Shown: positions 9,350-16,904 of the stretch, piece by piece
Layout of the letters: each line of letters opens with the position of its first letter
Numbering within the stretch: the stretch's first letter is position 1
Origin: Escherichia coli
GTDB lineage: Bacteria > Pseudomonadota > Gammaproteobacteria > Enterobacterales > Enterobacteriaceae
Reading direction: 5' to 3' (one strand)
DNA: 64,000 bases
Assembly: GCF_003334305.1 (NCBI RefSeq)
Contig: NZ_QOWS01000017.1
Translations under genes and position numbers: made by a program
Notes under the pieces: model-generated
Told to the model about the DNA's origin: nothing
The model's database searches: none
The model's input: the letters and a program-made list of their open reading frames with translations, nothing else

Positions 9350-11819
<2,470 letters not shown>

Positions 11820-11889: not shown

Positions 11890-12945
11890 ATGCGTAAAAT
11901 CATTCATGTGGATATGGACTGCTTTTTCGCAGCGGTGGAGATGCGCGACAATCCCGCCCTGCGCGATATCCCTATTGCTATTGGCGGCAGCCGCGAACGT
12001 CGGGGGGTGATCAGCACCGCCAATTATCCCGCGCGTAAATTTGGCGTACGTAGCGCTATGCCGACAGGGATGGCGCTCAAATTATGCCCGCATCTCACCT
12101 TGCTTCCGGGGCGCTTTGACGCCTACAAAGAAGCCTCAAATCATATCCGTGAAATCTTCTCGCGCTACACCTCGCGTATTGAACCGTTGTCACTGGATGA
12201 GGCTTATCTCGACGTCACCGATAGCGTCCATTGCCACGGTTCTGCGACCCTCATCGCCCAGGAAATCCGCCAGACGATTTTCAGCGAGCTGCAACTGACG
12301 GCGTCTGCGGGCGTGGCACCAGTAAAGTTTCTCGCCAAAATCGCCTCCGACATGAATAAACCCAACGGTCAGTTTGTGATTACGCCGGCAGAAGTTCCGG
12401 CATTTTTACAAACCTTACCGCTGGCAAAAATCCCCGGCGTCGGCAAAGTCTCGGCGGCAAAACTGGAAGCGATGGGGCTGCGGACCTGCGGTGATGTACA
12501 AAAGTGTGATCTGGTGATGCTGCTTAAACGCTTTGGCAAATTTGGCCGCATTTTGTGGGAGCGTAGTCAGGGGATTGACGAGCGCGACGTTAACAGCGAA
12601 CGGTTGCGAAAATCCGTCGGCGTGGAACGCACGATGGCGGAAGATATCCACCACTGGTCTGAATGTGAAGCGATTATCGAGCGGCTGTATCCGGAACTTG
12701 AACGCCGTCTGGCAAAGGTAAAACCTGATTTACTGATTGCCCGCCAGGGGGTGAAATTAAAGTTCGACGATTTTCAGCAAACCACTCAGGAGCACGTCTG
12801 GCCGCGGCTGAATAAAGCTGACTTAATCGCCACCGCGCGTAAAACCTGGGATGAACGCCGCGGCGGGCGCGGTGTGCGACTGGTGGGGCTGCATGTGACG
12901 TTGCTTGACCCGCAAATGGAAAGACAACTGGTGCTGGGATTATGA
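11890..12945 (+). CDS. dinB: DNA polymerase IV (Y-family translesion polymerase)
   Basis: 351-aa [25 protein letters not shown]... canonical Y-family N-terminus. Confidence 0.95.
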
Positions 12946-13394
12946 ATAACATACAAATAAGAGACTATCAGCCTGGCGATTTTCAGCAACTATGCGCTAT
13001 TTTCATTAGAGCGGTTACGATGACTGCCAGTCAGCATTATTCACCACAACAAATTGCCGCCTGGGCGCAGATTGACGAATCTCGCTGGAAGGAGAAACTC
13101 GCGAAATCACAAGTGCGGGTTGCAGTCATTAATGCAAAACTGGTCGGCTTTATTACCTGCGTTGAACACTATATCGATATGTTATTTGTTGACCCTGAAT
13201 ACACCCGCCGTGGGGTTGCCAGCGCTTTGTTAAAACCTTTGATTAAGTCTGAATCCGAACTTACGGTGGACGCAAGCATAACCGCAAAACCCTTTTTTGA
13301 ACGTTATGGTTTTCAGACAGTTAAGCAGCAACGCGTTGAATGTCGGGGAGAGTGGTTTATTAATTTTTATATGCGTTATAAACAGCAACATTAA
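12942..13394 (+). CDS. yafP: GNAT-family acetyltransferase
   Basis: 150-aa ORF overlapping the dinB stop; GNAT motifs. Confidence 0.8.
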
Positions 13395-13612
13395 ATCCAG
13401 CTTGCAATGAAAATAACGCAAGCCTAGTATGTGCGCGTTTTCTTATTCCACAAACTGCAAGGAGGTAAATCATGACAAATCCTTTATCAATGACTCTTTG
13501 CAGACCTTTCCAGGATTAATTCTTTTTTTCTTGCCCTGGATTCGTCTGCCATTTCCTGATTTTTTAATTGTTACTCTCAATAATTCAAGTCGCAACACAT
13601 GCAACTTGAAGT

Positions 13613-14779
13613 ATGACGAGTCTATTTACGGAATGGTATATGGGCAATTATATTCGTCCCTTATCCGATGCGGTATTTACCATCGCATCTGATGACCTGT
13701 GGATCGAGAGTTTAGCGATCCAACAATTACACACCACGGCAAATTTACCCAACATGCAGCGCGTAGTGGGGATGCCAGATTTACATCCCGGACGCGGCTA
13801 TCCGATTGGCGCAGCGTTCTTCTCTGTTGGTCGTTTTTATCCGGCACTGGTCGGCAATGATATCGGCTGCGGTATGGCGCTATGGCAAACAGATATTCTC
13901 ACTCGCAAATACAACGCCGATAAGTTTGAAAAGCGATTATCAGATCTGGATGACGTTGCTGAAGAAAGCTGGCTGGAGGAAAACCTGCCGTCAGCATTTG
14001 CACAGCATCCGTGGCGCAGCTCGCTTGGCTCTATCGGTGGCGGCAATCATTTCGCTGAACTGCAACAAGTTGATCAAATCATCAACGCTGAACTGTTTGC
14101 ACTGGCAGGTCTGGATGCACAACATCTGCAACTGTTGGTTCATAGCGGCTCGCGGGGGGTGGGGCAGTCTATTTTACAGCGGCATATTGCCTCGTTCTCG
14201 CATCATGGTTTGCCTCAAGGCAGTGACGACGCGCTACGGTATATTGCGGAACATGACGATGCGCTGGCGTTTGCGTGTATTAATCGCCAGATGATCGCTT
14301 TGCGCATAATGCAACAAGTTAAGGCCACGGGAAGTCCGGTTCTGGATGTGGCGCATAACTTTGTTAGCGCGTGTCAAATCGGCGATCAACAGGGCTGGTT
14401 GCATCGTAAAGGTGCCACGCCGGATGACAACGGTCTGGTGATTATTCCCGGTTCACGTGGTGATTACTCCTGGATTGTACAGCCTGTTGCGAACGAAAAA
14501 ACGCTCCACTCGCTGGCGCATGGGGCAGGGCGTAAATGGGGGCGCACCGAGTGTAAAGGGCGTCTGGCAGCGAAATACACGGCGACGCAACTCTCGCGTA
14601 CTGAACTTGGCAGTCGGGTAATTTGTCGCGATAAACAACTCATCTTTGAAGAAGCGCCACAAGCCTATAAATCGGCTGAAAGCGTGGTGCAATGTCTGGT
14701 GCAGGCCGGTTTAATTATTCCTGTCGCGCGGCTGCGTCCGGTGCTAACGCTCAAAAACAGTGGAGGGAAAAAAGGATGA
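13613..14779 (+). CDS. RtcB-family RNA ligase paralogue (RtcB2)
   Basis: 388-aa ORF with RtcB hallmarks (…[15 protein letters not shown]…, …GGGNHFAEL…, …HGAGR…); stop overlaps the prfH start (ATGA). Confidence 0.8.
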
Positions 14780-15390
14780 TCTTGCTACAACTCTCCTCAG
14801 CGCAGGGGCCGGAAGAATGTTGTCTCGCAGTGAAAAAGGCGCTGGACAGGCTAATTAAAGAAGCTGCCCGACAAGACGTCGCGGTAACGGTGTTGGAAAC
14901 AGAAACGGGCCGCTACTCTGACACGCTGCGTTCAGCTCTGGTTTCTCTGGATGGCGATAACGCATGGGCATTAAGCGAAAGCTGGTGCGGCACTATTCAG
15001 TGGATTTGTCCGAGTCCGTATCGGCCTCATCATGGGCGCAAAAACTGGTTTCTGGGCATTGGGCGTTTTACCGCTGATGAGCAGGAACAATCGGATGCAA
15101 TCCGTTATGAGACGTTGCGTTCGTCGGGGCCGGGCGGTCAACATGTCAATAAAACCGACTCGGCGGTACGCGCCACGCATTTGGCATCCGGTATTAGCGT
15201 GAAGGTTCAGTCAGAGCGTAGTCAGCATGCTAACAAGCGGCTGGCACGATTGCTGATTGCCTGGAAGCTGGAGCAGCAGCAACAGGAAAATAGCGCGGTG
15301 CTGAAATCGCAGCGGCGAATGTTCCATCACCAGATTGAACGTGGCAACCCGAGACGGACATTTACAGGGATGGCTTTTATCGAAGGATAA
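14776..15390 (+). CDS. prfH: peptide chain release factor homologue PrfH (intact)
   Basis: 204 aa from MILLQLSS...; GGQ motif (…[16 protein letters not shown]…) of class I release factors. Confidence 0.8.
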
Positions 15391-15446
15391 TGAAGGATGA
15401 AACTGCCGGAAGGCGATTAAACGCCATCCGGCAGCAAATCAAATAA

Positions 15447-16904
15447 TTACTTCGCCGGAATTTCTTTCAGCAGTTCAGTCAGCAGTGTCCAGTAATGACC
15501 TACGCTTTCGATGTGAACTTGCTCATCCGGAGAGTGTGGACCGGTGATAGTTGGCCCGATAGAAACCATGTCCATTTCCGGATACGGTTTTTTGAACAGA
15601 CCACATTCCAGGCCCGCGTGGATAATCTGGATGTTCGGTGTTTTGTTGAACAGACGCTGATAGGTTTCACGTACCAGATGCATCACCGGAGAATTAGCGT
15701 CCGGCTGCCAGCCAGGATATGCGCCTTTCGCTTCGGTTTTCGCGCCAGCTAGTTTACCCAGCGAATCCAGCATGCTCACCACGTAGTCTTTACCGCTGTC
15801 GATCAGTGAACGGATCAGGCAGTGAATTTCTACGTTATTGTCAGTCATGGTCACCACACCGACGTTCAGGGAGGTTTCGACCACACCTTTTGCCACGTCG
15901 GAATTGCGGATCACACCGTTCGGGGTGGCGTTCAGCAGACGAATAAAGGTATCGCGAGATTTCGCAATCAGGGCAGCTTTATCGTTCGCTACAGAGTCCA
16001 GCAACAAGGCCAGATTTTTCTCTTTCTCTGCCAGCTCGTTTTTCAGGATCTCCTGATAGGTATTCACCAGAGATTTCAGGACGTCGACTTTATCAGCTGC
16101 GACAGCAATGGTCGCAAAGGCTTCACGCGGGATGGCGTTACGCAGTGTGCCGCCGTTGAAATCGATAAGGCGCAGATCCAGTTCTTCCGCATGACCCGCC
16201 AGGAAGCGCACCAGTAGTTTGTTGGCATTACCCAGGCCAACGTGGATTTCACCGCCGGAGTGACCGCCTTTCAGACCTTTTAAGGTTAACTTGAAGGTTT
16301 CAAAACCAGCTGGAACCGCTTCACGATCTAAATGCAGGTTGGAGGTGAAGTCGATACCCCCCGCACAACCCATGTAGATTTCACCTTCTTCTTCGGAGTC
16401 GGTGTTAATCAGAATATCAGCCTGCAACCAGTTGCTCTGTAAGCCGAACGCACCGTCCATACCGGCTTCTTCGGTCATGGTCAGCAGCACTTCCAGCGGG
16501 CCGTGAACCACGTTTTCGTCAGCCAGAACCGCCAGCGCAGACGCCATACCAATGCCGTTATCTGCACCCAGCGTGGTGCCGCGCGCTTTAACCCATTCGC
16601 CATCAATATAAGGCTGGATAGGATCTTTCGTGAAGTCATGCACGGTGTCGTTATTTTTCTGCGGCACCATATCGAGGTGGGCCTGTAAGACGACCGGTTT
16701 ACGATTTTCCATACCTGCGGTAGCAGGTTTACGAATCAGGATATTACCTACCTGATCGCGTTCGACATGGAAACCTTTCTCTTTTGCCCAACCAACAATG
16801 TATTCAGCGAGTTGCTCTTCATGATAGGACGGGTGAGGAATAGAACAGATTTTGGCAAAAATATCCCACAGCGGCTGTGGAGATAATTGAGACAGTTCAG
16901 ACAC
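15447..16904 (-). CDS. pepD: cytosol non-specific dipeptidase (aminoacyl-histidine dipeptidase)
   Basis: 485-aa ORF, M20-family peptidase sequence matching PepD. Confidence 0.95.
   Translation of the reverse strand: MSELSQLSPQPLWDIFAKICSIPHPSYHEEQLAEYIVGWAKEKGFHVERDQVGNILIRKPATAGMENRKPVVLQAHLDMVPQKNNDTVHDFTKDPIQPYIDGEWVKARGTTLGADNGIGMASALAVLADENVVHGPLEVLLTMTEEAGMDGAFGLQSNWLQADILINTDSEEEGEIYMGCAGGIDFTSNLHLDREAVPAGFETFKLTLKGLKGGHSGGEIHVGLGNANKLLVRFLAGHAEELDLRLIDFNGGTLRNAIPREAFATIAVAADKVDVLKSLVNTYQEILKNELAEKEKNLALLLDSVANDKAALIAKSRDTFIRLLNATPNGVIRNSDVAKGVVETSLNVGVVTMTDNNVEIHCLIRSLIDSGKDYVVSMLDSLGKLAGAKTEAKGAYPGWQPDANSPVMHLVRETYQRLFNKTPNIQIIHAGLECGLFKKPYPEMDMVSIGPTITGPHSPDEQVHIESVGHYWTLLTELLKEIPAK

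Follow-up and report, generated by a model that had tools for sequence, protein, structure and literature searches.

A predicted ribosome-stalling sensor of the PA5471.1 family upstream of the rtcB2-prfH ribosome-repair operon of Escherichia coli

Introduction

In Escherichia coli ATCC 25922, the rtcB2-prfH operon guards the cell against colicin E3 (PMC9223846, PMC9304027, PMC13166195, PMC12829566) through two proteins that act on ribosomes whose 16S rRNA has been cut between A1493 and G1494: PrfH frees the peptide from these ribosomes (PMC9223846, PMC9304027, PMC13166195, PMC12829566) and RtcB2 re-ligates the cut rRNA (PMC9223846, PMC13166195). Ribosomes cut by E3 stall at the start codon, and RtcB, which differs from RtcB2 and served as a negative control, did not repair them (PMC13166195). 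In Pseudomonas aeruginosa, the RtcB-like RNA ligase ArmZ (PA5471) is encoded ahead of a PrfH (PA5470), and both are under the control of a leader peptide, PA5471.1, which senses stalled ribosomes (PMC12057347). The present work concerns the rtcB2-prfH operon in a 64,000-nucleotide (nt) stretch of E. coli DNA (NCBI RefSeq assembly GCF_003334305.1, contig NZ_QOWS01000017.1; this whole stretch is called the window and positions are counted from its first letter), and above all a 15-codon open reading frame (ORF) upstream of rtcB2 that we assign to the PA5471.1 family.

In P. aeruginosa, a constitutive promoter drives both armZ and its leader (PMC13041342). Complete translation of PA5471.1 keeps armZ off, and armZ is switched on by ribosome-targeting drugs, by suhB or cca mutations and by an amber codon at position 3 of the leader (PMC13041342, PMC12057347), while a 7-nt deletion of clinical origin makes it constitutive (PMC12057347). 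The literatures on the two species describe the same module, and their parts have not been connected. Work on E. coli addresses what RtcB2 and PrfH do to damaged ribosomes, and the rtcB2-prfH papers that could be searched make no mention of a promoter, a leader, an upstream ORF or induction of the operon. Work on P. aeruginosa addresses a leader that senses ribosome trouble, and sees the RtcB-like protein encoded downstream of it mainly as a regulator of the MexXY efflux pump. A leader that is conserved together with the operon joins the two.

Results

A leader ORF upstream of rtcB2

The 246-nt spacer between yafP and rtcB2 contains an ORF of 15 codons plus TAA (13472..13519, + strand) that encodes MTNPLSMTLCRPFQD and is defined by its sequence, its conservation and a frame test. 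Its Shine-Dalgarno (SD) sequence, AAGGAGGT, lies at 13459-13466 and is separated by 5 nt from the ATG at 13472. A preliminary description of this DNA, made from the letters alone, had picked out the ORF as a possible regulatory leader peptide with a near-perfect SD about 130 nt upstream of rtcB2; the ORF and its SD stand, but the distance does not, since the ORF starts 168 nt and stops 120 nt before the rtcB2 ATG. The ORF sequence is identical in K-12, and a 177-nt query comprising the end of yafP, a promoter-like site, the ORF and the switch described below (13396-13572) was found at an identity of at least 95% in 5,387 of 5,426 complete E. coli genomes. Despite this prevalence, the ORF is absent from RefSeq annotation: the tables for a strain identical to the window, for a K-12-like strain and for MG1655 list nothing between yafP and rtcB2, and no annotation covers the leader in 12 sampled genome matches. 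The peptide string had no match in the literature text searched.

Comparable upstream regions were collected from the genomes of other Escherichia, Klebsiella, Citrobacter, an uncultured enterobacterium, Salmonella, Phytobacter, Intestinirhabdus, Kosakonia, Entomohabitans, Cronobacter, Limnobaculum, Leminorella, Providencia, Proteus and one Pseudomonas, from metagenomes, and from plasmids or megaplasmids of Ralstonia, Klebsiella pneumoniae (IncC), Methylosinus, Microbulbifer, Tritonibacter and Shinella. This wider sample came from protein look-ups, from plasmid records and from one pattern scan of metagenomes, while a scan of genome contigs with a single protein gave nine loci. Every locus collected carries an SD-preceded ORF of 11-16 codons approximately 100-170 nt before rtcB2. 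All 22 lineages that were detailed (Enterobacterales, Pseudomonas, Ralstonia and the IncC plasmid) have an ORF of 13-15 codons with a strong SD at this place, and four more distant proteobacterial loci have one of 11-16 codons, likewise preceded by an SD. The genes upstream differ between lineages (dinB and yafP in Enterobacteriaceae, a C92 peptidase gene in Budviciaceae, others elsewhere), and the leader therefore travels with the operon. Among 21 distinct versions of the ORF, the region before the conserved stop codon holds no stop in frame, compared with 17 in the +1 frame and nine in the +2 frame, and both of the length changes observed (-3 and -6 nt) are multiples of three. This pattern indicates that the leader ORF is real, selected and kept open.

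The N terminus of the encoded peptide is variable: codons 2-8 vary freely and the residues there are not conserved. The C-terminal pattern L-C-(R/G)-x-x-Q-x does recur in most lineages, and the third and fourth residues of PA5471.1, Q3 and F4, matter for induction in a P. aeruginosa cca mutant (PMC13041342), so both could be read as signs that the 15-residue peptide itself is functional, whether it arrests ribosomes in a sequence-specific way or serves as a small protein. We consider this highly improbable. The apparent motif coincides base for base with RNA segments that are paired in the helices described below, every conserved residue falling in such a segment, and the change from R to G is accompanied by a compensating change in the partner strand of helix P2. 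In the lineages that have these residues, Leu is always encoded by CTT and Cys always by TGC, and the leader on the IncC plasmid translates the same RNA motif, CCUUUGCAGG, in another frame to give MQNTSTSFAGLVR; the constraint is therefore on the RNA. The effect of Q3 and F4 in P. aeruginosa has itself been explained by tRNA supply and not by the peptide (PMC13041342).

Relationship to PA5471.1

RtcB2 of the window and ArmZ are 59% identical over the full length, and the identity between PrfH and PA5470 is 62%, with each pair falling into the same NCBIfam equivalog, so that armZ-PA5470 is identified by sequence as the orthologous operon of P. aeruginosa. In the P. aeruginosa locus analysed here, an ORF 254 nt before armZ with the SD GCAAAGGAGG encodes MIQFSTLCRLRLA. 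We take this ORF to be PA5471.1 because the published mutations of that leader agree with its Q3 and F4 and with its nucleotides 7 and 12 (PMC13041342). It has GCAAAGGAGG, CCCUUUGCAGGC, CCCUUUGCAGG, CCUGG and UAA in common with the other leaders, as well as the P2 partner GUCUGCC (GGUCUGCC) and a GGAUUGG ribosome-binding region. The similarity is one of motifs, GCAA(A)GGAGG, C(C/U)CUUUGCAG(G/A)C, CC(A/U)GG, UAA and G(U/C)CUGCC, which can be traced from one leader to the other via Pseudomonas YH-1, Budviciaceae and Klebsiella, and it identifies the E. coli ORF as an unannotated member of the PA5471.1 family. The proposal of a regulatory leader is thus borne out, both by this homology and by the position that the ORF keeps in every lineage examined, with one refinement: the lineages preserve translation across an RNA switch rather than the sequence of the peptide.

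A candidate sigma-70 promoter for this leader can be read from the sequence at 13402..13430 (+ strand), with the -35 element TTGCAA at 13402-07, a 17-nt spacer and the -10 element TAGTAT at 13425-30, followed directly by the GC-rich discriminator GTGCGCG (13431-37). It matches 8 of 12 consensus positions and was not listed by a consensus scan, and the searchable text part of a Cappable-seq supplement contains no K-12 start site near 2532xx. The arrangement TTGC(A/T)A-17-TAnnAT with a GC-rich discriminator also precedes the leader in Klebsiella, Citrobacter, Phytobacter, Providencia, Proteus, Pseudomonas and Ralstonia, despite the differing upstream genes. From the conservation of this promoter-like site we infer that the leader and rtcB2-prfH lie on one transcript. 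The discriminators, which read GTGCGCG, ACGCGCAC or TTCGCCAC (window 13402-13437 and loci L008, L011, L015, L022-L024, L042 and L049), resemble those of stringently controlled rRNA promoters and might tie transcription to growth rate or ppGpp.

Helices of the leader RNA

Three overlapping helices, P1, P2 and P3, and a tentative fourth, P4, were defined in the leader. Base pairs were counted on a gapless block alignment of the 22 lineages, which are related to one another, after removal of mobile insertions and with the blocks anchored on sequence motifs. P1 pairs CTGCAAGGAG (13455..13464, + strand), which overlaps the leader SD, with CTCTTTGCAG (13494..13503, + strand) in leader codons 8-11. 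It appears as inverted repeat I3 and is part of the minimum-energy fold in nearly all lineages, with 82.6% of alignment cells paired compared with 42-56% when the partners are slid. The positions within P1 are mostly conserved or vary in wobble-compatible ways, and its covariation score was reached by 9 of 500 shuffles.

P2 pairs GCAGACCTTTCCAGG in codons 10-14 (13500..13514, + strand) with CCTGGATTCGTCTGC (13535..13549, + strand), the two arms forming inverted repeat I2, and is the only helix that RNAalifold predicts on the full MAFFT alignment. Overall, 88.3% of cells are paired, against 21-44% with slid partners, and the six basal pairs are formed in 100% of cells. Compensatory changes occur at three of these basal pairs, which are found as GCAGAC:GUCUGC, GCAGGC:GCCUGC, GCGGGC:GCCCGC, GCGGAC:GUCCGC and GCAGAU:AUCUGC, and the covariation score was not reached by any of 500 shuffles.

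P3 pairs an anti-SD segment, TGCCATTTCC (13547..13556, + strand), with GGAATGGTA (13630..13638, + strand), the weak ribosome-binding region of rtcB2, and is predicted when the sequences of most lineages are folded singly. From Escherichia to Budviciaceae, the stretch (A)TGGA(A/T)TGGTATATGGGCAA is nearly invariant. Pairing occurs in 85.4% of cells, compared with 29-43% with slid partners, and again none of 500 shuffles reached the covariation score; one pair is A-U in eight lineages and U-A in six. P4 would pair TTGCCC (13531..13536, + strand) with GGGCAA at 13642-13647, that is, with the G of the rtcB2 ATG and codons 2-3. Of the 22 lineages, 15 contain its 5' arm as (A/T)TTGCCC, Pseudomonas and Ralstonia among them, and some minimum-energy folds show this arm paired. 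Since Budviciaceae, Providencia, Proteus and the IncC plasmid lack the arm and no covariation is seen across the 22 lineages, we treat P4 as tentative. A pairing of the CU-rich anti-SD segment with the leader's own SD was considered and dropped, since by eye it is not conserved.

The last four bases of the P1 3' arm, GCAG (13500-03), begin the P2 5' arm, and the last three bases of the P2 3' arm, UGC (13547-49; TGC in the DNA), are common to the P3 5' arm, so each helix therefore weakens the next. Taken together, the comparative evidence identifies the leader ORF as part of a covarying RNA switch. In a screen for riboswitch-like segments by structural entropy, a 100-nt part of the MG1655 yafP-ykfJ spacer that lies 3' of the leader ORF (253317-253416) ranked 98 among E. 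coli intergenic regions (PMC4448311). A scan of 12800-15600 with Rfam covariance models at E <= 10 gave no relevant match. One hit, to the archaeal snoRNA sR28 on the minus strand within prfH (14970-15037), was set aside as chance, with 17.1 bits against a gathering score of 39 and E = 0.21.

The position of these helices also bears on the level at which a sensor of this family would act. The same family could respond to the same signal through premature transcription termination in the leader, intrinsic or Rho-dependent, with sequestration of the rtcB2 ribosome-binding site being secondary. In the model published for P. aeruginosa, segments 3 and 4 do form a terminator after complete translation of the leader (PMC13041342, PMC12057347), and the E. 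coli leader 3' of the ORF is C/U-rich and G-poor, like Rho loading sites, and contains a T-run at 13560-13565, directly after the P3 5' arm. However, a scan of 13395-13640 found no plus-strand hairpin with a T-run between yafP and rtcB2, the same scan finds no terminator in the P. aeruginosa leader either, and in Enterobacterales the T-run falls within the P3 loop, 10 nt beyond P2. It is with the rtcB2 start region itself that the switch has its strongly conserved pairing, and one of the P. aeruginosa papers speaks of 'translational attenuation' (PMC3575510). On balance, we judge termination to be a rather unlikely output of the E. coli leader, though a serious alternative. Control of translation initiation is favoured because the leader of Enterobacterales is short and its conserved pairing partner is the start region of rtcB2.

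A mobile insertion in the leader

Between the leader switch and the rtcB2 ribosome-binding site, the window carries a 51-nt element (13572..13622), which we take, from the ERIC1R and ERIC2 primer sequences, to be an internally deleted repeat of the enterobacterial repetitive intergenic consensus or intergenic repeat unit (ERIC/IRU) type. The arms of its inverted repeat, I1, lie at 13573-94 and 13600-21. At the same spot K-12 and Escherichia MOD1-EC7003 have 72 nt more, which in K-12 carries the ERIC core, and there is no insertion in E. whittamii, a further Escherichia (L005), K. oxytoca, Citrobacter and others. This distribution indicates that the 51-nt remnant is not part of the ancestral leader, and the 22-nt inverted repeat at 13573-13621, which other lineages lack, was accordingly assigned to this ERIC remnant and rejected as an operator or RNA hairpin. 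In K. spallanzanii the same position is occupied by a 60-nt element whose ends are similar, making this a hot spot for ERIC/IRU-type insertions. According to the modelling described below, the insertion may blunt the switch.

Modelled effect of ribosome position

We modelled the energetic cost of unpairing the start region of rtcB2 (-13 to +9) with the leader free, with a ribosome on the leader AUG and with a ribosome whose A site holds the leader stop codon. Placing a ribosome on the AUG of the 22 insertion-free leaders would lower this cost by a mean of 2.4 kcal/mol, with a decrease in 20 of them, while a ribosome at the stop would raise it by 1.8 kcal/mol. When the P1b/P2a segment was shuffled, both modelled effects were lost (+1.0 and +0.1). 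The predicted order, in which an early ribosome means on and a ribosome that reaches the end means off, agrees with the published behaviour of the P. aeruginosa leader. A crude scan of ribosome positions was noisy at codons 2-3, as the model ignores the steric block of a ribosome inside the P1 loop.

The modelled effect is weak in the Escherichia sequences, and at its natural expression the operon guards against colicin E3 without any reported induction (PMC9223846, PMC13166195). Both points would fit a leader ORF and helices whose sole effect is to keep rtcB2-prfH expression constitutively low, for example through a link to ribosome availability or by protecting the mRNA, with no inducible sensor in E. 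coli. Set against this are the conservation of three mutually exclusive helices from Enterobacterales to Ralstonia and the inducibility of the homologous P. aeruginosa leader. In addition, a review (PMC3516279) that cites Morita 2006 reports induction of the K-12 remnant ykfJ by 4-azaleucine, an analogue that disturbs translation; the K-12 leader is identical to that of the window from the ORF through the anti-SD segment that forms the 5' arm of P3. A purely constitutive role thus strikes us as improbable.

The rtcB2-prfH operon and its surroundings

The gene order in this part of the E. coli chromosome is lafU-dinB-yafP-rtcB2-prfH, followed by pepD on the opposite strand, gpt and frsA. The gene rtcB2 (13640..14779, + strand) encodes a 379-amino-acid RNA ligase of the RtcB family, of the type coupled to release factor H, and prfH (14776..15390, + strand) encodes the 204-amino-acid peptide chain release factor H. 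RtcB2 scores 642.5 bits against the NCBIfam model NF007153 (cut-off 407), with residues 1-378 aligned to profile positions 1-378 of 379, and 617.5 bits against TIGR03073, the model for RtcB genes coupled to release factor H (cut-off 271.8). Its start at 13640 is also the RefSeq start in a strain identical over the whole region. A longer ORF from the ATG at 13613 was rejected, as that start is not conserved and 13640 fits both RefSeq and the end-to-end NF007153 alignment. Residues 294-298 form an HGAGR motif, which in RtcB enzymes carries the GMP-accepting histidine.

PrfH scores 329.3 bits against TIGR03072 (cut-off 166.65), has a GGQ motif at residues 120-122 and aligns solely with the C-terminal parts of release factors 1 and 2, release factor domain 1 being absent. 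It is identical at 200 of 204 positions (98%) to chain 8 of PDB entry 7SA4, the E. coli PrfH solved on a damaged ribosome, which answers the call for an alignment to a characterised PrfH. The two genes are co-oriented, with rtcB2 directly upstream, and overlap by ATGA (14776-14779), the prfH ATG (14776-78) lying over the rtcB2 TGA (14777-79), and prfH is predicted to be translationally coupled to rtcB2 through this overlap. MG1655 and a K-12-like strain contain only fragments, ykfJ and prfH, that are annotated as pseudogenes. The preliminary description was therefore right that both genes are full length and overlap by ATGA, as the ORF coordinates, the NCBIfam matches and RefSeq agree, that PrfH retains its GGQ and that the K-12 counterparts are fragmentary. 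Its view that the pair acts on damaged ribosomes is upheld by the NCBIfam cut-offs, the PrfH identity and published work, and for the colicin resistance test that it proposed, a version with colicin E3 has already been published (PMC9223846, PMC9304027, PMC13166195). The intact pair is common and already known: at least 80% of the region was found in 2,710 of 5,426 complete E. coli genomes, about half of them, and at least a part of it in 5,416 of 5,426.

A GC-rich hairpin at 15403..15434, between the convergent genes prfH and pepD, probably marks the end of the operon, the segment 15391-15450 folding with a predicted energy of -25.1 kcal/mol; this hairpin has no plus-strand T-run and is not among the matches of the terminator scan. 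Upstream, dinB (11890-12945) and the GNAT acetyltransferase gene yafP (12942-13394) overlap by ATGA, and the yafN-yafO toxin-antitoxin pair, which in K-12 lies between them, is absent from the window. Further upstream, 9350-11819 is a K-12-like remnant of the lateral-flagella (Flag-2) cluster, in which a minus-strand FlhA-like fragment abuts lafU. In place of this remnant, a full fliS...motA-lafU cluster is found in strain 165, whose rtcB2-prfH sequence matches that of the window exactly.

Several of the loci sampled show further variation in the operon itself. An IncC plasmid of K. pneumoniae, whose sequence also occurs on an E. coli plasmid, carries a divergent rtcB2-prfH (52.6% identity) that has its own leader and adjoins sul1; this pair resides on conjugative multiresistance plasmids and the repair module is therefore mobile. 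On the Shinella plasmid pShin-02, two tandem RtcB-family genes precede prfH and a short SD-preceded ORF lies between the two. Intestinirhabdus alba has a 173-nt insertion in the P2 loop with both P2 arms retained, and its prfH is split into ORFs of 144 and 61 amino acids and is probably a pseudogene.

Discussion

We propose that a promoter, a leader with a 15-codon ORF and rtcB2-prfH form a self-contained module in which the leader would serve as a ribosome-stalling sensor of the PA5471.1 type, built from three overlapping helices. P1 would pair the leader SD region with codons 8-11, P2 would pair codons 10-14 with a segment approximately 20 nt downstream, and P3, perhaps reinforced by P4, would pair the segment after P2 with the rtcB2 ribosome-binding site. 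Healthy ribosomes that reach the leader stop would melt P2 in each round, leaving its 3' arm free to lengthen P3/P4 and so close the rtcB2 start region (off). Ribosomes that are stuck at or near the leader start codon, or are slow to arrive, would hold P1 open and allow P2 to form in full; P3/P4 would then be weakened, with P3 losing its first pairs, so that working ribosomes could start on rtcB2 (on), with prfH following by coupling. Ribosomes cut by colicin E3 stall on start codons, and the repair enzymes would therefore be induced when they are needed. We infer that the E. coli leader acts on the initiation of rtcB2 translation and that damaged ribosomes are its natural signal, and we regard the explanation as a whole, a repair module under a PA5471.1-type stalling sensor acting through P1-P3, as probable.

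Several points weigh against this explanation. The published P. aeruginosa model is transcriptional and works through a terminator hairpin (PMC13041342, PMC12057347). Translation of the E. coli ORF and inducibility of the operon in an intact strain are both predictions, and the ORF (K-12 coordinates 253239-253286) has no entry in the supplement of one small-ORF ribosome-profiling preprint. The helices were derived from the same sequences that were used to count their pairs, support for P1 and P3 consists mostly of conservation and wobble-compatible changes, and just one event in evolution may lie behind the A-U/U-A switch in P3. In the thermodynamic model, the natural sequence of the window, with the ERIC remnant and coding flank, shows no opening of the rtcB2 start region (7.5 kcal/mol with the leader free, 8.6 with a ribosome at the start and 9.5 with one at the stop), and in the insertion-free Escherichia versions the effect of a ribosome at the start is small, from -1.9 to +0.7. 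Finally, a start-codon mutant of the P. aeruginosa leader is said, in a 2009 abstract by Morita, to be constitutively on as well. If so, the ribosome-free state lies closer to on than P1, strictly read, would imply, and the role of P1 may be to tune initiation on the leader and not to gate the switch.

The 7-nt clinical deletion in PA5471.1 (2262-2268 of the P. aeruginosa locus; nt 16-22 of the leader ORF) removes ACCCTTT, which is the SD-pairing half of the P1 3' arm; the P2 arm, GCAGGC, is untouched. Its constitutive phenotype fits a restraint of P2 by P1, although the loss of 7 nt also causes a frameshift.

In a more far-reaching version of the stalling-sensor explanation, the leader would be dedicated to sensing ribosome damage within a closed loop. 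After cleavage of their decoding centre by colicin E3 or cloacin-type toxins, ribosomes would still bind the very strong SD and the AUG of the leader but stay on the start codon and hold the switch open, allowing intact ribosomes to produce RtcB2 and PrfH, until release by PrfH and repair by RtcB2 of those same parked ribosomes reset it; the circuit would be ancestral across Proteobacteria, and the role of ArmZ as a MexZ anti-repressor a later add-on. We put this forward tentatively, as an idea that may well prove wrong in part or whole. The conservation of the leader with the operon, from Enterobacterales to Ralstonia, also suggests that the induction of armZ by aminoglycosides reflects an older repair response.

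The PA5471.1 family appears to have been studied only in P. aeruginosa, and the leader of E. coli and its relatives appears unannotated and unconnected to the ribosome-repair literature that could be searched. Its recognition makes a hypothesis testable in E. coli, namely that repair is switched on by ribosomes unable to get going on a decoy ORF, and the covarying helices provide a basis for mutational tests.

Among the closest described systems is that of ATCC 25922 and PDB 7SA4, which has the same genes at the same locus (yafP-rtcB2-prfH-pepD) with the same ATGA coupling and shows no difference of substance in the proteins; the published work on it used plasmid promoters or native levels. 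The rtcBA operon, controlled by RtcR and sigma-54, is similar to the proposed module in that an RNA-repair ligase is induced by damage to the translation apparatus, but it relies on a transcription activator that senses RNA fragments, and the locus in the window has neither a sigma-54 promoter nor such a regulator gene. PA5471.1 shares with the E. coli leader a short SD-preceded ORF upstream of an orthologous operon. The two differ in the length of the ORF (15 codons in E. coli, 13 in P. aeruginosa), in the distance from its stop to the ligase gene (120 nt, or 69 nt without the ERIC remnant, compared with approximately 210 nt), in approximately 150 additional nt within the P2 loop of P. aeruginosa, where the anti-SD lies elsewhere, and in the lack of a MexZ/MexXY target in E. 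coli.

Among leader-controlled systems in general, ermC/cat-type leaders likewise have a short leader ORF and mutually exclusive helices that end at a downstream ribosome-binding site, which a ribosome stalled in the leader frees, as is proposed here for E. coli. Unlike them, the E. coli leader has no conserved arrest peptide, no known drug specificity and no sequence relationship to this group; its first helix hides the leader's own SD, and the start and first codons appear to matter instead of an arrest site in the middle of the ORF. Attenuators of the trp/tnaC type also use the translation status of a leader to select between alternative RNA folds, with a completed ORF meaning off. The E. 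coli leader differs from these in having, according to the terminator scan, no terminator hairpin with a T-run, in having no run of regulatory codons and in its proposed signal, which would be the performance of the ribosome and not the supply of one amino acid.

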